Sequence record: OQ845958.1
Reading direction: 5' to 3' (one strand)
DNA length: 64,000 nucleotides
Origin: Escherichia phage pEC-M719-6WT.2
Shown here one piece after another: positions 21,858-51,799 of the stretch. The notes beneath the pieces are model-generated. The model made no database searches. It was not told where the DNA came from and saw only the letters and a program-made list of their open reading frames with translations. The translations under genes were made by a program, and so were the position numbers. Every line of letters begins with the position of its first letter. Position 1 is the stretch's first letter.

Positions 21858-22100
21858 ATGGAAACATTAATTGCAGGTACTGTTGTTCTTGGTGCTGGTT
21901 CTTTCTTCCTGGCTGCACTGGCATATTTTCTGCCGTGGATTATCGCGCTACTGCGAGGAACCAAAAGTAATTGCGGAATCTTCTTTGTTAACCTCCTGTT
22001 AGGTTGGACAATGGTCGGATGGTTTATTGCATTTATTTGGGCACTCGTTGCTGAGCGTAAATCAAATGCACATGTAATTATCATCAAGGAAACCAAATGA
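21858..22100 (+). CDS. imm: superinfection-immunity-type membrane protein (Imm-like)
   Basis: 80 aa, two TM helices, LLLGWTMVGWFIAFIWAL motif; sits after gp43 as T4 imm does. Confidence 0.5.
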   Translation: METLIAGTVVLGAGSFFLAALAYFLPWIIALLRGTKSNCGIFFVNLLLGWTMVGWFIAFIWALVAERKSNAHVIIIKETK

Positions 22101-22240
22101 AGATAATTACAATTATTGTACTGATTGCATTTTTTAGTATGTCAATCTATTGGGCAATAATGACTCCGCATATGATTCCAACTTTAATTTTGGGTTGGAT
22201 ATTTTTGGGACTCCAAGCTCGCTATGAATGTTTTAATTGA
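22097..22240 (+). CDS. small membrane protein
   Basis: 47-aa hydrophobic ORF, ATGA overlap with imm-like stop. Confidence 0.3.
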   Translation: MKIITIIVLIAFFSMSIYWAIMTPHMIPTLILGWIFLGLQARYECFN

Positions 22241-22250
22241 GGAAAATACA

Positions 22251-22754
22251 ATGAAAAAGTTAGCTATCGCAGCTGTTATGCTGCTATCCGGTTGTGCTTA
22301 CCAGGGTGATGTAGTTAATGCCAGTGAGATTGGTAAAGCAAGAATTGCTGCAGACCGTCAGGTGCATAATGGTTCCTTTGATTTCAAAGGTGGTACTGGA
22401 CTTATCTACAAACGCGACAACAATCAATGTGGAAATAACTGCGCAAAATATGCTCAACAAGAAATTGAGTACAAACGCGAGCAAGCTGCAAAGCATGACG
22501 AAATCATTGCCAAGCTGGAAGCAGAAACTAAGCGACAAAATGACCTGGACACTGTTAACCAGATTTCACAGGTATGCATGTCATATATCAATATGCAGAT
22601 AAACATCATGCGTGCAGAAGCTTATCAGGCAGCGGAGACGGGTTCTCCAAAAGCCAATGAGTATCGCGATATGTATCAGCGTTCTGCTCAAAACCGTCTG
22701 AGCTATATTAATAAATGTATAGCTAAAGAGAAAGCACGCCAAGGTATTAACTGA
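22251..22754 (+). CDS. putative lipoprotein
   Basis: Signal peptide with lipobox LLSGC; SD GAGGA before ATG-22251. Confidence 0.5.
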   Translation: MKKLAIAAVMLLSGCAYQGDVVNASEIGKARIAADRQVHNGSFDFKGGTGLIYKRDNNQCGNNCAKYAQQEIEYKREQAAKHDEIIAKLEAETKRQNDLDTVNQISQVCMSYINMQINIMRAEAYQAAETGSPKANEYRDMYQRSAQNRLSYINKCIAKEKARQGIN

Positions 22755-23096
22755 TGCTATTATTACTTCTGATTGTTGGAACAGTAATTGGTTTGCTGCT
22801 ATTAGAAAAGCGTAATAAGCATTTGGCTGAAGAAAACTGGAAACGTGGAAACGTTTACTAAATTACTCTGAACTGCGAGAAAAATATTATGATTGATATG
22901 CTATTGATTAGTCTGTGGCTGTTGTCTGCATTTGGTATTGGTTTTATGTACTGGTGGGACAAACGTCAGACCCGGAAGATTGTTGAACGTGCAATTAATC
23001 GTGGATTTAATCGTTAATTGCTCTAAAAATACAGTGATATAATTATCCTATCTTAAACCTGTGAGAAAAATATAATGGTGCCTATGGAAAAAATGA

Positions 23097-24275
23097 ATGT
23101 CTATTGCAGATTTGAAATCCCGTTTGATTAAAGCTTCTACATCCAAAATGACTGCGACTCTTACCAAGTCCAAGTTCTTTAATGATAAAGATGTAGTTCG
23201 TACAAAAATCCCAATGCTGAACATTGCAATCAGCGGTGCACTAGATGGTGGTATGCAGTCAGGTTTGACTATTTTTGCTGGTCCGTCAAAACACTTTAAA
23301 TCCAATATGGGTTTAACGATGGTCTCTGCATATATGAACAAATACCCCGATGCAATCTGTTTGTTCTATGATTCAGAATTTGGTATCACAGAAGCATATC
23401 TTCGTGCAATGAAAGTTGACCCGGAACGTGTTATTCACACACCAATCCAGTCGGTTGAACAATTGAAAGTTGATATGGTTAACCAGCTTGAAGCAATTGA
23501 GCGTGGTGAAAAAGTCATTATCTTCATTGACTCAATCGGTAACATGGCGTCTAAAAAAGAAACAGAAGATGCGATGAACGAAAAAGTCGTTGGCGATATG
23601 ACTCGTGCTAAATCCCTGAAATCTCTGTTCCGTATTGTTACCCCATATTTTAGTATCAAGGATATTCCTTGTGTCGCGGTTAACCATACAATCGAGACGA
23701 TTGAGATGTATAGCAAAACCGTTATGACCGGTGGTACAGGTGTTATGTATTCTGCGGACACCGTATTCATTATCGGCAAACGCCAGATTAAAGAAACTGG
23801 TAAAGAACTTGAAGGTTTCCAATTTGTTCTGAACGCCGAAAAATCTCGTATGGTCAAAGAGAAAAGTAAATTCTTCATTGATGTAAAATTCGATGGGGGT
23901 ATTGACCCGTATTCTGGCCTGCTTGATATGGCAATGGAAATCGGATTTGTGGTGAAACCGAAAGTTGGTTGGTATAACCGCGAATATCTTGATGTTGAGA
24001 CCGGTGAAATGGTCCGCGAAGAAAAATCATGGCGTGCAAAAGATACTAACTGCACCGAATTCTGGGGACCGTTGTTCAAGCACGAACCTTTCCGTGATGC
24101 AATCAAACGCCATTACCAACTGGGTGCAATCGATAGCAATGCTGTTGTTGACGCCGAGGTTGATGCGCTTATTGCCTCCAAGGTTGAAAAATACTCTGCT
24201 CCTGAAGGTAAGGTAAAACCATCTGCAGCAGATATCGAAAATGATTTAGATATGATGGAAGACCTTGATGAATGA
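23097..24275 (+). CDS. uvsX: RecA-like recombinase UvsX
   Basis: 392 aa; Walker A GPSKHFKS; long identical runs to remembered T4 UvsX. Confidence 0.95.
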   Translation: MSIADLKSRLIKASTSKMTATLTKSKFFNDKDVVRTKIPMLNIAISGALDGGMQSGLTIFAGPSKHFKSNMGLTMVSAYMNKYPDAICLFYDSEFGITEAYLRAMKVDPERVIHTPIQSVEQLKVDMVNQLEAIERGEKVIIFIDSIGNMASKKETEDAMNEKVVGDMTRAKSLKSLFRIVTPYFSIKDIPCVAVNHTIETIEMYSKTVMTGGTGVMYSADTVFIIGKRQIKETGKELEGFQFVLNAEKSRMVKEKSKFFIDVKFDGGIDPYSGLLDMAMEIGFVVKPKVGWYNREYLDVETGEMVREEKSWRAKDTNCTEFWGPLFKHEPFRDAIKRHYQLGAIDSNAVVDAEVDALIASKVEKYSAPEGKVKPSAADIENDLDMMEDLDE

Positions 24276-29869: not shown

Positions 29870-30388
29870 ATGGCTCATTTTAATGAATGTTCACAACTGA
29901 TTGCCGGTGTTGATAAAGCTGCTCTGGCTTATGACAATGCAATTACAAAAGGTACTGACCCGCTGCAGATTATGCTTGATATGCAGAAATCATTGCAAGT
30001 TCGTCTGGCTACTGAAAAACCAGAATATAACTCACATCCAGATGAATTGGCTACTGCAGGTGATGTTGTTGCATGGCTTCGTAACCAGAAAGATTATATC
30101 GACGACGAATTCCGTGAACTTCTGACTTCTCTCGGTGGTATGTCTAATGGCGAGAAAGCTGCATCTAGTGTATGGAAACCATGGAAAGTCCAACATGCTG
30201 AATTCCGTAATCGTCGTATTGATGAGTTGTCTCCCGAAGACCAGCTCGAAATTAAATTTGAGATGATTGATATCCTGCACTTTGTTCTGAACATGTTCCA
30301 TGGCCTTGGACTGACTGCAGAAGAAATCTTTAAATTGTATTACCTGAAAAACGCTGAGAACTTTGCTCGTCAGGACCGGGGTTATTAA
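29870..30388 (+). CDS. 56: dCTP pyrophosphatase gp56 (MazG-like dCTPase/dUTPase)
   Basis: 172 aa, MAHFNECSQLIAGVDKA...IDDEFRELLTSLG...FARQDRGY; strong match to remembered T4 gp56. Confidence 0.88.
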   Translation: MAHFNECSQLIAGVDKAALAYDNAITKGTDPLQIMLDMQKSLQVRLATEKPEYNSHPDELATAGDVVAWLRNQKDYIDDEFRELLTSLGGMSNGEKAASSVWKPWKVQHAEFRNRRIDELSPEDQLEIKFEMIDILHFVLNMFHGLGLTAEEIFKLYYLKNAENFARQDRGY

Positions 30389-38374: not shown

Positions 38375-38929
38375 ATGAAAGTTGAAGCTGGTGATATTGT
38401 ACGTGTTTCTAAAGAATCTCGTTCTAAAGCTGCTGGTCGTTTTGTTGAGGTTGCGGGTCTTCGCACTAATTTAGTAGGTGGAATTAAAGAAGTTAAAGTG
38501 CGTATCATTCCTAAAAATGGTCAGACTGAAACTCAATTGGCTTATGTGCATCCTAAATTCCTGGAATCAACCGAATTTACTGGATATATCGCTCCTGTGT
38601 CTGAGGAAGTTGAATCCCATGATGGATATGTGTGCGAAAGCAATGATATCCGTGGTGTAATTGCTCAAGACGTTGAAACCATTGACCAGTCTCATGTTGG
38701 GGTTGATTTTAAATGGAAATTGGGCAAAGGTGTCTTTTTTGTTTCACCTAAACCGTTTGAATACAATTGCATGTACGGTCCGACTTATGAAACCACTAGC
38801 ATGTCTGGTTACATCACAGACCAGTGGGTTGAAGAAGGTGTCAAACTGTATAATATCGTATTCCTTGGAACCTTTAAGGTTGTTCCTGAGAGCTTTATCG
38901 TTGAGTATGCCGATATTCATTTTGCCTAA
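38375..38929 (+). CDS. hypothetical protein; C-terminal domain paralogous to 37543 ORF
   Basis: 184 aa; C-terminus GYITDQWVEEGVKLYNIVFLGTFKVVP. Confidence 0.5.
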   Translation: MKVEAGDIVRVSKESRSKAAGRFVEVAGLRTNLVGGIKEVKVRIIPKNGQTETQLAYVHPKFLESTEFTGYIAPVSEEVESHDGYVCESNDIRGVIAQDVETIDQSHVGVDFKWKLGKGVFFVSPKPFEYNCMYGPTYETTSMSGYITDQWVEEGVKLYNIVFLGTFKVVPESFIVEYADIHFA

Positions 38930-38977
38930 ATTATAAAAATGATAGGGTAATTTTGCCCTATCAATGAGGAGAATATT

Positions 38978-39202
38978 ATGTTTAATGAAGATTGTGTGAC
39001 CACTTCCCTGACTGCTGAAGAGTTTTGGGACACTGCCGAAAGTGATAAAGTGATTGTGAAGAAAAACATCAATGAATTTCTTTGCACCACTGATATCATT
39101 TATGTGTATGCAGACAAAGACGCAGAACTACCTAGCTATGCGCTGTTCCGCGAAGAATCAGAAGATGGTACAGATTTTTGGAAGGAGATTTATAATGTCT
39201 AA
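38978..39202 (+). CDS. hypothetical acidic protein
   Basis: 74-aa ORF with SD GAGGAG. Confidence 0.4.
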   Translation: MFNEDCVTTSLTAEEFWDTAESDKVIVKKNINEFLCTTDIIYVYADKDAELPSYALFREESEDGTDFWKEIYNV

Positions 39203-39566
39203 ATTTGAAACTGATAAGTGGTATTATTTTAAAGATAATGTTGCTGAAAGCAGATTCCGTTTGTTATGCACAGATAATGATAATATAGCCAATGCTATAA
39301 TCAATGGCGAGGGATTTAGACCAGTCAGAATTGAAGATGGTGATGTGTATAAAATGGAATTATCAACTGGTGAATTTGTGAGCCTATTCATAAAGGAAGA
39401 CGAATTCCGTTTCTTTGAAGAAGAAAAAGATGACGATACTGAAGATGAATGCGAAGACGCAGCTCCATCTGAGCCAAGCGAATTCCCTTTGACTAAAATC
39501 ACCATCTCTAATAACTCCGAAGCCTGGACCGTTTACCAGATGTTGAAAGCACACTTTAAGGAATAA
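39195..39566 (+). CDS. hypothetical acidic protein
   Basis: 123-aa ORF from internal ATG. Confidence 0.4.
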   Translation: MSKFETDKWYYFKDNVAESRFRLLCTDNDNIANAIINGEGFRPVRIEDGDVYKMELSTGEFVSLFIKEDEFRFFEEEKDDDTEDECEDAAPSEPSEFPLTKITISNNSEAWTVYQMLKAHFKE

Positions 39567-39567
39567 C

Positions 39568-39744
39568 ATGCCACTTTATGATTACAAATGTCAATCCAAT
39601 GACTGCGCGAAAGAATACGAAAAAATCAAGAAAATCTCTGAAAGAGATAATGATGTTTGTCCTGATTGCCATCGGCTGGCTGTTCGGTTAGTCTCGGCCC
39701 CTAAACATGTTAATGGCGGTTTTTACGACCTGCTGACTAAGTGA
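39568..39744 (+). CDS. zinc-ribbon protein (FmdB-like)
   Basis: 58 aa, YDYKCQSNDC...CPDCH paired CxxC motifs. Confidence 0.45.
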   Translation: MPLYDYKCQSNDCAKEYEKIKKISERDNDVCPDCHRLAVRLVSAPKHVNGGFYDLLTK

Positions 39745-45301: not shown

Positions 45302-46273
45302 ATGTTTAATATCAAATGTATGTCTAAAGCCGAACAAGCTGATGTGGTCCAGATGTATTCAACGGGCAATTATACCCAGCCTGAATTGGCAGAATATTTT
45401 GCTGTGTCCGTTGACACCATTCGCCGCGTTTTGAAAAATGATAAAGAATCAAAATTAGCTAAAACCATTTCTGCATCACTGAAAGCAGCTGTTGGTGTGG
45501 CGATTAATGCTCCGGTGACAGTAACGGTTGAAGTCCCGGTTGCTGATACAATCGGCGGTAGCCGCCCGGAAATCGTATGGAACGCATCAAGCAAATTCGT
45601 TTCCATCACCGAAGGTCGCACGGTCTGGAACGCAACAAAAGACCATAAACACTTTAATGATATTATTCAGGCACTCAAAGAATCTCGTTTTGACGATGCT
45701 ATCGAGTTTATCTCAATCAAAGCTGCGGTGCAAAAATATGTGAAAGGTGATGTGCGTATTGAAGGTGGTAGTCTGTTCTATCAGGGAATTGAACTGCGCT
45801 CTGGTTTGGTTACTCGTATCATTGATTCAATGCAAAATGGTGAAGATTTTGAATTCTATCTGCCGTTCCTTGAGAATCTCCTTGAGAACCCGAGTGAAAA
45901 AGCAGTACAGCGTTTGTTTGACTTCCTGGTTGCTAACGATATCGAAATCACCGAAGATGGTCATTTCATCGCCTGGAAAATGGTTCGTTCAACCTACAAA
46001 GATTGTCACTCAAACACATTCGACAACAGCCCTGGCCAATATGTTAAAATGCCACGCTCTCGTGTGAATGACAATGACGAACAAACCTGTTCAACTGGGC
46101 TGCACGTTTGTTCTAAAGGTTATATCGGAAGTGGCTTTGGTCATGGTGATGGGCGCATCGTATCCTGTAAAGTTCACCCGCGCGATGTTGTAAGTATCCC
46201 GGTGGATTATAATGATTCAAAAATGAGGGTTTGTGGTTACCTGGTTCTTGATGATGTAACTGAACAATTCTAA
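45302..46273 (+). CDS. rIIB: rIIB protein
   Basis: 323-aa ORF immediately after rIIA. Confidence 0.82.
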   Translation: MFNIKCMSKAEQADVVQMYSTGNYTQPELAEYFAVSVDTIRRVLKNDKESKLAKTISASLKAAVGVAINAPVTVTVEVPVADTIGGSRPEIVWNASSKFVSITEGRTVWNATKDHKHFNDIIQALKESRFDDAIEFISIKAAVQKYVKGDVRIEGGSLFYQGIELRSGLVTRIIDSMQNGEDFEFYLPFLENLLENPSEKAVQRLFDFLVANDIEITEDGHFIAWKMVRSTYKDCHSNTFDNSPGQYVKMPRSRVNDNDEQTCSTGLHVCSKGYIGSGFGHGDGRIVSCKVHPRDVVSIPVDYNDSKMRVCGYLVLDDVTEQF

Positions 46274-46306: not shown

Positions 46307-46504
46307 ATGTTAGGTTTCCAAGCACGTGTAGTTGAAGAATATGACCAGCTGGTTTTGAAAATCAATGCTCTTGAAGAGTTTATTAAGGGTGGTGTTTTTG
46401 AAACTCTTGATATCCGTCAACAAGGTCTTTTGATTGCCCAACTGGATGCGATGGGCGCATATGCTCATGTACTGGCAATCCGTATCTCTTATTTTGGTGA
46501 ATAA
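46307..46504 (+). CDS. hypothetical protein
   Basis: 65-aa ORF after GGGGC-ttcg-GCCCC hairpin. Confidence 0.4.
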   Translation: MLGFQARVVEEYDQLVLKINALEEFIKGGVFETLDIRQQGLLIAQLDAMGAYAHVLAIRISYFGE

Positions 46505-46507
46505 ATT

Positions 46508-46828
46508 ATGATTAACTATATGAACGTTGGCGATGAATCTATTAACGAAATCCGGTTGCATGGTAATCATGTTGCGGATATTGTTTATTGTGTGGATTGT
46601 CATTATGCTTCTACAAAGTCAACTGGGCGGTTATATGCGAGGGACATCATTCTTGCAACGAAAGAAGAACTTCGTAGTCTGGACCATTCTACACTAGCCG
46701 AAAGTGCCAGAATTTATTATGGCGTCGTTCATGTGGACAAAGTTTATATTGGCAGCGATTATCAAGAGCAAGCTGAGCAAAATTCTTTAGATATTGTCGA
46801 AAAATCCGATATGTATTTTAAAGGATGA
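46508..46828 (+). CDS. hypothetical protein
   Basis: 106-aa ORF. Confidence 0.4.
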   Translation: MINYMNVGDESINEIRLHGNHVADIVYCVDCHYASTKSTGRLYARDIILATKEELRSLDHSTLAESARIYYGVVHVDKVYIGSDYQEQAEQNSLDIVEKSDMYFKG

Positions 46829-46832
46829 CATT

Positions 46833-47426
46833 ATGATTCAGAAGAGTAAAACATGGGAGCATCTGAAAAAGATGCCCTCCTTTCTTTATACAAAAGAAGA
46901 CTTAACCCCCGAATCCCTGCAAAAGATTGTAGACACTGCCAGGTATTCATTGCGTAAAGACCCTGGTCAGGACCGTGAGCAAGTCATGCAAAGATGTATG
47001 GTGGCTACAATGGCTGAACAAGCTATTGCTAAATGGACCTCCGGTTTTTTATGTGGTGGCGATGAAGATTACGATAATCCTTATTCCTTTGCATTTGATG
47101 TAGTTTCGAAGGAAGGGGTAAGAATCGAAGTCAAGACCCATCAGTCTGGTTCCAAATGGATATCCGTGCACACTGGCAGCCATGGCGATTACCCACACGG
47201 TTACGGAGTTAATCTTGGCCCTTTTATGCAGCACAAGCTTGCTGACCTTATGATTATGTTTAATGTAAAAGAGACTATCAAAGGTTATAGATTTAAACCA
47301 AAATTCCTTGCTGGGCCGGGTGCTTTCGTTCCTGAGTCTGGTCTTGTGCAGAAGTCACAAGGGGATGGCTGGTACCTCCGTTCTTGTTCAGAAGAAAAAT
47401 TTCCCTATCACCGGTTTACAAGCTGA
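46833..47426 (+). CDS. putative PD-(D/E)xK-like nuclease (DenB position)
   Basis: 198 aa; AFDVV...RIEVKT resembles D...ExK motif; lies between rIIB and ndd where T4 has denB. Confidence 0.35.
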   Translation: MIQKSKTWEHLKKMPSFLYTKEDLTPESLQKIVDTARYSLRKDPGQDREQVMQRCMVATMAEQAIAKWTSGFLCGGDEDYDNPYSFAFDVVSKEGVRIEVKTHQSGSKWISVHTGSHGDYPHGYGVNLGPFMQHKLADLMIMFNVKETIKGYRFKPKFLAGPGAFVPESGLVQKSQGDGWYLRSCSEEKFPYHRFTS

Positions 47427-47473
47427 ACCAACCATGTAATAATGTCCTCACACCAACAAATGAGGACATTATC

Positions 47474-47749
47474 ATGGAACACGTTACTACTAATAACATC
47501 AAACAAATTCTTATTCAAGCACTCAAAAACAACAACATCAATTTTCCAACCCATGAAATTTTTGATGTAGTATTCAACGAAGTCCAGGGACAAGTTGCCT
47601 ATTATGACGTTATCATTTATCTTTCAGAATTTGAAGTCTACCACCTGACTGAAATCGCTTTCTATCTCTATCGTGGAACAGCAGATTTTACTGGGGTCGT
47701 GAATGCAGTTGGTGCATATAAAGAAGTTAAAGAACAAATGCACAATTAA
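47474..47749 (+). CDS. hypothetical protein
   Basis: 91-aa ORF preceded by 9-bp hairpin ATGTCCTCA/TGAGGACAT. Confidence 0.4.
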   Translation: MEHVTTNNIKQILIQALKNNNINFPTHEIFDVVFNEVQGQVAYYDVIIYLSEFEVYHLTEIAFYLYRGTADFTGVVNAVGAYKEVKEQMHN

Positions 47750-49586: not shown

Positions 49587-50036
49587 ATGACTACTTACAT
49601 GACCCGTCGTGACGTACTGAATGCTGGTGCTACCACTGTTGCTTATATCCATAATGGTAATTATGTTGCCGGTCGCCCAACTAAAGAAGCTATCACTCAA
49701 CCAGGTTTTTATTTCGTGGTTAAAGGTGAAGGTGAATCGCGTATTGTTGCCGCACGTTTTTATGTTGGTAACCAACGTTCACAACAAGGGTTTGACACTG
49801 TATTAAGTCACATCCGCAAACAGCGTTCTCAACTGTCTCGCACAATGGCGAACAATGGGGTTATCTATGAAGTCCTGTTTGTCCCAGTTTCTAAAATGAA
49901 ACCTCTGACAACTGGTTATGGTAAAGGTCAAATTGCAATGGCGTTCACTCGCTCGCATAGTTCTGATTGCCAGACCCTTTCAGAAATGAATCGCATGCTT
50001 GCTGATAACTTTAAATTCATTCTGCAGAGCTATTAA
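49587..50036 (+). CDS. ndd: nucleoid disruption protein Ndd
   Basis: 149 aa; [23 protein letters not shown]...MKPLTTG.GKGQ...[12 protein letters not shown] matches remembered T4 Ndd. Confidence 0.85.
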
Positions 50037-50419: not shown

Positions 50420-51799
50420 ATGTCTGACGTTTTAAGTATGATGTCCAAACAGTTCAGTGATTCCATGGGGACCCTTAACCCACGCAGTCTAAAAGACATT
50501 ATTGATGTGGAAGCATTGTCATATGCTATCTACACTGTGGAAGGTCGTGCCATCCCAAACATGATTGATGGTTTTAAACCAGTTCACAGATTTGTTATGG
50601 CGAGAGCATTAGACCTGGCACGTGGTGATAAGAATAAATTCCATAAGGTTGCATCCATTGCAGGTGGCGTAGCTGATTATGGTTATCACCATGGTGAAGC
50701 ATCAGCTGAAGAAGCAACTTCTGGGTTGGTCGCAACATATAAAAATGAATATCCCATGTTTGATGGGCAAGGTAACTTTGGTTCCAGAATGGTGCCAGAA
50801 GCATCATCGGCTCGTTATGTATTCGCAAGGGTTTCAAAGAACTTTTACAACTTGTTTAAGGATACAGAATATGCTCCGGTCCATCCTGATGAAGAACATA
50901 AGCCTCCTGCTTTTTATCTTCCTGTTATTCCTACTGTATTACTTAACGCCACTTCTGGGATTGCTGTTGGCTTTGCTACTGATATCCTTCCTCATTCGTT
51001 CCAGGACGTCAAGGAAGCTGTTAAAGCTATCGTGGAAGGTCGTGAGCCGGTTGCTCCGAAAGTAAAATATCCAGAATTCCGTGGTAAAGTTGTTGAGCTG
51101 GAAGAGCCTGGTAAGTATGAGCTTCACGGCACATACAAAATGACCTCAAGGACTCAAATGGAAATTACTGAAATCCCGGTCCAATGGAACCTGGAAAAAT
51201 ATACAAGTAAAATCCTGGACCCACTGGAAGAGAAAGGTTTTATCACCTGGAAAGATAACTGCGGCGAGCATGGTTTTGGGTTTAAGATTAAATTCCGCAA
51301 AGAATACAAGTTGGATGGCACTGAAGAAGAGAATCATGAGAAAATCATGAAAGACTTTGGTCTGATTGAGAAACTCTCCCAGAACTTAACTGTGCTTAAT
51401 CACAAAGGCAAATTAGCTGAATACACCAACACGCTTGACCTGATTCGCGATTTCGTTGATGTCCGTAAGACTTATGTTCAAGTGCGAATTGACAGTAAGA
51501 TTAAAGAAACTGAAGCGGCATTTAAACTGGCCCGGGCAAAAGTCTTCTTTATTAAAGAAGTGATTGATGGTAAGGTTGTTATCCAGGGGAAACCTCGTAA
51601 GAAGTTGATTGAGGAGCTCCAGGCGAGTGAAATATATGGCGATTATGCAGAGAAGTTAGTGGCGATGAACATCTACCATATGACCTCTGATGAAGCTAAG
51701 AAGCTTGCGGACGAAGCTAAGGCTAAGAAAGCTGAGCATGAGTACTGGAAGACAACTGACGTTAAAACTGAGTACCTTAATGATTTGGAGGCTCTATGA
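50420..51799 (+). CDS. 52: DNA topoisomerase II medium subunit gp52 (GyrA-like)
   Basis: 459 aa with GyrA-type N-terminal region; position after ndd/stp. Confidence 0.92.
   Translation: MSDVLSMMSKQFSDSMGTLNPRSLKDIIDVEALSYAIYTVEGRAIPNMIDGFKPVHRFVMARALDLARGDKNKFHKVASIAGGVADYGYHHGEASAEEATSGLVATYKNEYPMFDGQGNFGSRMVPEASSARYVFARVSKNFYNLFKDTEYAPVHPDEEHKPPAFYLPVIPTVLLNATSGIAVGFATDILPHSFQDVKEAVKAIVEGREPVAPKVKYPEFRGKVVELEEPGKYELHGTYKMTSRTQMEITEIPVQWNLEKYTSKILDPLEEKGFITWKDNCGEHGFGFKIKFRKEYKLDGTEEENHEKIMKDFGLIEKLSQNLTVLNHKGKLAEYTNTLDLIRDFVDVRKTYVQVRIDSKIKETEAAFKLARAKVFFIKEVIDGKVVIQGKPRKKLIEELQASEIYGDYAEKLVAMNIYHMTSDEAKKLADEAKAKKAEHEYWKTTDVKTEYLNDLEAL

Follow-up and report, generated by a model that had tools for sequence, protein, structure and literature searches.

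Downstream of rIIB in Escherichia phage pEC-M719-6WT.2 (OQ845958.1) lies an open reading frame that an initial annotation, made from the letters alone, had read as a possible PD-(D/E)xK nuclease at the place where T4 has denB. The locus raises a question in two parts: which nuclease is encoded here, and which base in the phage's own DNA such an enzyme would have to spare. The window analysed comprises 64,000 nucleotides with a G+C content of 40 %; genomes of related phages and protein family collections were searched in addition.

Reading frame and local gene order

The coding sequence extends on the plus strand from the ATG at 46833 to a TGA ending at 47426 (46833..47426) and translates into 197 amino acids plus the stop codon, not into the 198 residues first given. 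Homologs begin at the same methionine (MIQKS/MIRNS), therefore ATG 46833 is the right start and TTG 46794 is not. A Shine-Dalgarno sequence AAGGA, read from the sequence at 46821..46825 (+), precedes the start codon by 7 nt. The TGA of the preceding reading frame (46826-46828) ends only 4 nt before the ATG, thus denB and its neighbour are tightly packed. The placement between rIIB (45302-46273) and ndd (49587-50036) held, with gene 52 (50420-51799) located downstream of ndd. This is the position, 3' of rIIB and 5' of ndd, of the denB family in T4-like genomes. The order rIIB - denB.1-like - DUF7418 - denB ... ndd - gene 52 is identical in phage vB_EcoM_VR20 and corresponds to that of T4.

Two small reading frames sit between rIIB and denB. 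The frame at 46307-46504 (+) encodes 65 amino acids, is T4 DenB.1-like according to the VR20 record and matches the Pfam family PF21825 'crAss001_48 related protein' (E 6e-19). Its neighbour at 46508-46828 (+) encodes 106 amino acids with a CxxC...-type stretch, matches DUF7418 (E 7e-26) and is labelled 'YopX' in one record. Downstream, between denB and the next reading frame, a perfect 10-bp inverted repeat was found at 47441-47470 (+), AATGTCCTCA ... TGAGGACATT, with a 10-nt loop; its 3' arm overlaps the ribosome-binding region of the frame starting at ATG 47474. The repeat could be a translational or RNA-processing element. Scanning for promoters and terminators around denB yielded counts not above shuffled expectation, thus no regulatory claim is made for the gene.

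Orthology with denB and distribution of the allele

The correspondence with T4 goes beyond position: the reading frame is the ortholog of denB itself, encoding endonuclease IV. Homology to DenB is full-length: residues 1-196 matched positions 1-203 of the profile PHROG 1360 'DenB-like DNA endonuclease IV' (E 6.9e-80), and BLASTP aligned 178 residues with T4 DenB at 46 % identity (E 9e-59). The protein sequence equals that of the annotated denB product of Escherichia phage ECML-359 (100 % identity), with 97.5 % identity of the genes on the nucleotide level. The region of about 3 kb around the frame has 98.4 % identity to ECML-359 and 94-95 % to vB_EcoM_VR20 and VR26, all three being members of the genus Gaprivervirus in the Tevenvirinae. 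A precomputed match to PF26887.1 was carried by all 17 of the 17 database homologs. The frame is thus the ordinary denB of a T4-like coliphage of the genus Gaprivervirus (VR7/VR20/SP18 group), a gene already annotated and already known.

Homologs were detected with tblastn in 1,090 phage records, nearly all of them T4-like and mostly annotated as denB or endonuclease IV. The protein identities are bimodal: 34 records reached at least 90 %, while the other 1,056 were all below 60 %. These 34, among them VR7, VR20, VR25, VR26 and SP18, hold the same denB allele at 93-97.5 % nucleotide identity. Outside the group, identities of the subclade formed by this allele do not exceed about 51 % for named phages and reach 65 % for metagenome sequences. 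A profile search against 1.84 billion cluster representatives retrieved 33 at E <=1e-3 and 14 at E <=1e-30; judged by its sequences, the DenB family is small. Within the group the gene is under purifying selection: 25 nucleotide differences to VR20 result in 2 amino acid differences, and 16 nucleotide differences to the phage EAWsc9 in a single one.

Catalytic residues and predicted fold

The string on which the nuclease reading was originally based, a D and an E-V-K spaced by nine residues, was confirmed as SFAFDVVSKEGVRIEVKTHQ, which comprises D89, nine residues and E99-V100-K101. By itself, D-x9-E-x-K is weak evidence, with a chance occurrence of a few percent in a 197-aa protein by rough estimate. 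The string gains significance from its conservation across the family. E62, D89, E99 and K101 are invariant in an alignment of 18 close homologs, and among 25 aligned members, with identities as low as about 20 %, no column except these four and M1 is without variation; V100 is conserved in at least 90 % of the 25. The codon of D89 (47097..47099, +), the 'D' of PD-(D/E)xK, and the codons of E99-V100-K101 (47127..47135, +), the (D/E)xK element, are accompanied upstream by that of the conserved glutamate E62 (47016..47018, +), predicted to reside in the first core helix.

Residues defined by mutations in T4 and T2 DenB are kept as well. G71, G180 and W181 of T2 align with G71, G179 and W180, while Ser176 of T4 corresponds to S175 (codon 47355..47357, +), invariant in the 18-homolog alignment. 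T4 W88 aligns with F88, which adjoins D89; the family has W, Y or F at this position, hence the aromatic character is retained. In T4 DenB, W88R abolishes activity and S176N loses the polarized cleavage of dC tracts (PMC2175332). An AF3 model with catalytic Mg2+ has been presented, and the T2 escape mutation G71R was placed near the active site (PMC12916289).

A conserved PD-(D/E)xK motif in DenB was reported in 2025 from AF2 models (PMC12405507). The PD-(D/E)xK nature of DenB is thus already published, and the gene call made here changes nothing in it; the family-wide invariance of E62, D89, E99 and K101 and the predicted fold fit this published reading. Our best AF2 model had a mean pLDDT of 82.3 and a pTM of 0.82, although only one of five models reached a pLDDT of 82, the remaining ones staying at 62-66, and residues 79-86, immediately before D89, had a pLDDT below 50. 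The predicted order of helix 48-68, strand, strand 97-103, helix and strand fits the core alpha-beta-beta-beta-alpha-beta fold of the superfamily. The active-site residues are placed accordingly in the model: E62 in helix 48-68, D89 before a short strand (90-91) and E99-x-K101 in strand 97-103. Foldseek support was weak, with a best match at E 0.0099; the fold resemblances listed were Eco15I_Ntd (7.2), SwaI (7.0), NhoI (6.5), DpnI (6.1) and DXO/Rai1 (6.0). In sum, the predicted fold presents moderate evidence. Neither the protein alone nor a profile built from 18 sequences produced anything but sub-threshold noise in the local Pfam copy, NCBIfam or the PDB sequences. The matches in this noise, to a NOMO1 domain, adenosine deaminase, PsaI, GNAT and Lsp1/Pil1, are not meaningful for DenB. 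The local copy of Pfam-A does not contain PF26887, thus the missing match reflects the date of the library, not the absence of a family.

Cytosine modification in the lineage

The initial annotation had made the interest of the gene conditional on a cytosine modification that differs from that of T4. For the lineage this condition was borne out: gene 42 is absent, the relatives encode a variant thymidylate synthase (Td) with N177D, and the modification very probably differs. In T4, the slot between imm and uvsX holds gene 42 and beta-gt. The corresponding slot (21858-24275), bounded by imm (21858-22100) and uvsX (23097-24275), contains as sole reading frame one of 176 amino acids (22224..22754, +) with a lipoprotein-like signal, MKKLAIAAVMLLSGC, which is not a modification enzyme. 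With T4 gp42 and the gp42-like protein of phage VR5 as queries, tblastn against the window gave nothing better than E 0.9, and T4 gp42 did not detect gene 42 in the complete VR20 genome. The VR20 annotation includes neither alpha-gt nor beta-gt, and glucosyltransferase genes are lacking in the window too. A concealed modification enzyme was sought by Pfam scan among ten larger hypothetical, non-T4 proteins of VR20; the scan revealed DUF7275/DUF7277, DUF7338 and otherwise only noise.

The partner functions of DenB, in contrast to gene 42, are retained. A homolog of gene 56 (dCTPase/dUTPase) is located in the window at 29870..30385 (+), identified by tblastn with VR20 gp56 (87 % over 172 aa, E 4e-104), which the VR20 record annotates as 'similar to T4 gp56'. 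As a partner of DenB, the gene 56 function excludes dCTP from the DNA of the phage. Two further members of the set, denA and alc, occur in relatives. For Gaprivervirus, the retention of denA, denB, alc and gene 56 without gene 42 has been described, and its base was suggested to be an unknown one (PMC8056088, PMC12115623). Restriction digests indicated that VR7 'has modified cytosines' and that its DNA is not glycosylated (PMC6326788 and its supplement). As gene 42 and glucosyltransferases are missing in the lineage, the modified base to be spared would not be hydroxymethylcytosine (hmC) or its glucosylated form.

In VR20, two adjacent Alc-like reading frames of 167 and 77 amino acids were observed on the minus strand (38905-39408 and 39422-39655 of the segment). 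The 77-aa product is similar to the N-terminal part of the 167-aa one, which may reflect a partial duplication.

A thymidylate synthase variant in the relatives

The only gene of the thymidylate synthase family in VR20 is td, located outside the window (NC_028894.1 142394-143254, segment 45394-46254, minus strand). Its product, about 65 % identical to T4 Td, contains LGLPF-D-IGSY; the corresponding stretch is LPF-N-IASY in E. coli ThyA as well as in the Td of T4 and VR5. The same aspartate variant is found in the Td of ECML-359, VR7 and YenP8 (each at 48-908 of its segment). Numbered as in E. coli ThyA (verified with MG1655 thyA), this corresponds to N177D, L143, C146 and D169 being kept; in the Td of T4 and of VR5, position 177 is occupied by Asn. 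The substitution N177D makes thymidylate synthase use dCMP in place of dUMP, yielding 5-methyl-dCMP (PMC8670742). Leu143 goes with methyl and not with hydroxymethyl products, while D169N marks 5-hydroxy-dCMP synthases (PMC13326640). By these published criteria, the combination L143/D169/D177 predicts a dCMP methylase and DNA with 5-methylcytosine (5mC). With identities of at least 86 %, 32 phage records carry the variant, the next best match being at 70 % or less, and the phages carrying it are essentially the same set as the carriers of this denB allele. We found no paper mentioning the N177D variant of Td.

The protecting base of the lineage is therefore probably 5mC, as read from the sequences of the relatives, formed via a dCMP methylase derived from Td, and this DenB would then probably have to be blocked by 5mC rather than by hmC. 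Among the searchable papers, no report was found on whether 5mC blocks T4 endonuclease IV or any DenB. Extended to the whole system, the reading would be as follows: Gaprivervirus gave up gene 42 and hmC, the N177D Td acts as dCMP methylase, virion DNA contains 5mC in place of cytosine, DenB, DenA, Alc and gp56 discriminate between C and 5mC, and DenB is an ssDNA endonuclease blocked by a single methyl group at C5. This full chain is tentative, and we would give it slightly less than an even chance. It would also call for a source of dTMP, for which residual activity on dUMP, a phage Cd that deaminates 5-methyl-dCMP, or the host ThyA may be considered.

A different signature was seen in VR5, a Dhakavirus with glycosylated DNA. 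Its gene-42-like gp043 (NC_028881.1 23379-24077, segment 4380-5078, minus strand) has E143, N169 and D177 and thus carries the D169N signature tied to 5-hydroxy-dCMP synthases. The gene adjoins others annotated as thymidylate kinase and phosphoheptose isomerase.

Proposed activity and alternative explanations

We consider it very likely that the reading frame encodes the DenB of Gaprivervirus, a PD-(D/E)xK nuclease cutting dC-containing ssDNA, with the phage's own DNA spared by a modified base. Following the model, the protein would be a small single-domain nuclease dependent on divalent metal; E62, D89 and E99 would bind the metal ion or ions, with K101 as the remaining active-site residue. 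Its homology to the DenB of T4 and T2 suggests that single-stranded DNA with cytosine is cut 5' of dC. T4 endonuclease IV requires Mg2+, Mn2+, Co2+ or Ca2+, acts on ssDNA and leaves 5'-dC ends, and it does not cut DNA with glucosylated hmC (PMC1635256). It prefers T|CA and dC tracts, with Ser176 governing the polarity (PMC1635256, PMC2175332). Purified DenB, obtained from constructs of T2 denB, cleaves the msDNA of retron Eco2 upstream of dC (PMC12916289). During infection the enzyme may, by analogy, help to destroy the DNA of host and plasmids and prevent DNA with unmodified cytosine from being replicated; the phage DNA would be spared since its cytosines are, in this proposal, replaced by the modified base. 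Together with gp56, and with DenA and Alc in the relatives, DenB would exclude cytosine DNA from the infected cell. The analysis itself establishes orthology, synteny, conservation of the catalytic residues, a predicted fold and purifying selection, while the dC specificity, the ssDNA preference and the part played in infection are taken over from the work on T4 and T2. With only 46 % identity to T4 DenB, the sequence preference and the sensitivity to particular modifications may differ.

Such a difference could go further. The protein may be a DenB homolog with shifted specificity or role, active in another sequence or base context, or directed mainly at targets such as plasmids or retron msDNA rather than at ssDNA gaps in the host genome. 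The gap between the 34 close records and the 1,056 distant ones would fit a separate course of this allele, as would the C-terminal extension relative to T4 (197 versus 185 aa) and a lineage without gene 42; moreover, msDNA of retron Eco2 is a known DenB substrate (PMC12916289). The extension is, however, common to the DenBs of Karamvirus, Pectobacterium and Klebsiella phages, and Karamvirus is recorded with an hmC gene (PMC12115623). Synteny around denB is unchanged, and all residues known to matter in T4 and T2 are conserved, including the specificity-linked S175. A shift is thus conceivable but unsupported, since the known functional residues are maintained, and we regard it as improbable. 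Still more doubtful is that the nuclease reading as such is wrong, the D...ExK string being a chance match in a protein that is an inactive relic or not a nuclease with the PD-(D/E)xK fold. Strings this short do arise by chance, and the searches of the local Pfam copy, NCBIfam and PDB sequences remained without match beside a weak Foldseek result. Family-wide conservation and fold exclude a chance motif; this explanation is already largely refuted and hardly deserves credence.

A further alternative concerns the protection of the phage. An inhibitor or immunity protein encoded next to denB, instead of a modified base, could restrain the enzyme, the candidate being the 91-aa reading frame at 47474-47749 (+; PHROG 17571 'unknown function'). 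The frame is lineage-specific ('similar to VR7 gp288'), follows denB after a 47-nt spacer with the 10-bp hairpin, and is labelled 'MafI family immunity protein' in the EAWsc9 record. This label was not reproduced: NCBIfam gave no match at E up to 10 and Pfam none at E up to 1. A MafI-type immunity protein was therefore rejected for 47474-47749, the label being confined to the EAWsc9 record. An inhibitor would also abolish the action of DenB on host DNA, and the modified cytosines of the relatives, the dCTPase and the predicted dCMP methylase already explain the protection. We consider an inhibitor in place of a base modification very improbable and retain the reading of a DenB that spares DNA with a modified base.

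Implications of the lineage setting

The gene is annotated as denB in dozens of near-identical genomes, and the interest lies only in its lineage setting. The set of DenB, Alc, DenA and gp56 is understandable only for a phage in which cytosine is replaced, but the genus is without gene 42. The N177D substitution in Td provides a concrete hypothesis for this situation, the synthesis of 5-methyl-dC at the nucleotide level as in the Xanthomonas phage Xp12. 5-Methylcytosine is thus a concrete candidate for the base of Gaprivervirus, with a DenB that probably distinguishes C from 5-methyl-C. If this is true, a comparison of this DenB allele with T4 DenB would be useful for understanding the way in which the C5 position is recognized by a small nuclease acting on ssDNA, and the enzyme would be a potential 5mC-blocked, cytosine-specific ssDNA nuclease for methylation work. 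Retron Eco2 senses DenB, and its triggering by such phages is a further question on which this would bear.

Comparison with known systems

With DenB of T4 and T2 the protein shares 46 % identity over nearly the full length, the position between rIIB and ndd, the invariant E/D/ExK residues and the mutation-defined residues G71, S176, G180 and W181. The partner set is shared as well: the window contains gene 56, and relatives have denA and alc. In contrast to T4 DenB (185 aa), the protein of 197 aa has a 14-residue C-terminal tail, RSCSEEKFPYHRFTS, lacks a 3-residue insert between D89 and ExK, and has F88 for W88. The lineage differs from T4 and T2 in having neither gene 42 nor glucosyltransferases.

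T4 DenA (endonuclease II), a GIY-YIG-type nuclease, is a functional partner that attacks only cytosine-containing DNA and is present in relatives of this phage. Unlike DenB, it is an unrelated protein of 136 aa with dsDNA as substrate (PMC1635256), and it is not encoded in the window. The BisI family (N-terminal domain of Eco15I, 8q5m; NhoI, 8q5n) as well as SwaI, DpnI, BcnI and PvuII have 7-13 % identity to the protein, without a sequence-level relationship being detectable; the likeness to these BisI-family and small type II PD-(D/E)xK enzymes is a resemblance of fold, not of family. Their substrate is dsDNA, which they cleave at defined sites, and that of DenB is ssDNA. The response to the base is also reversed: BisI enzymes require 5mC or 5hmC, while DenB needs unmodified dC and is blocked by modification.
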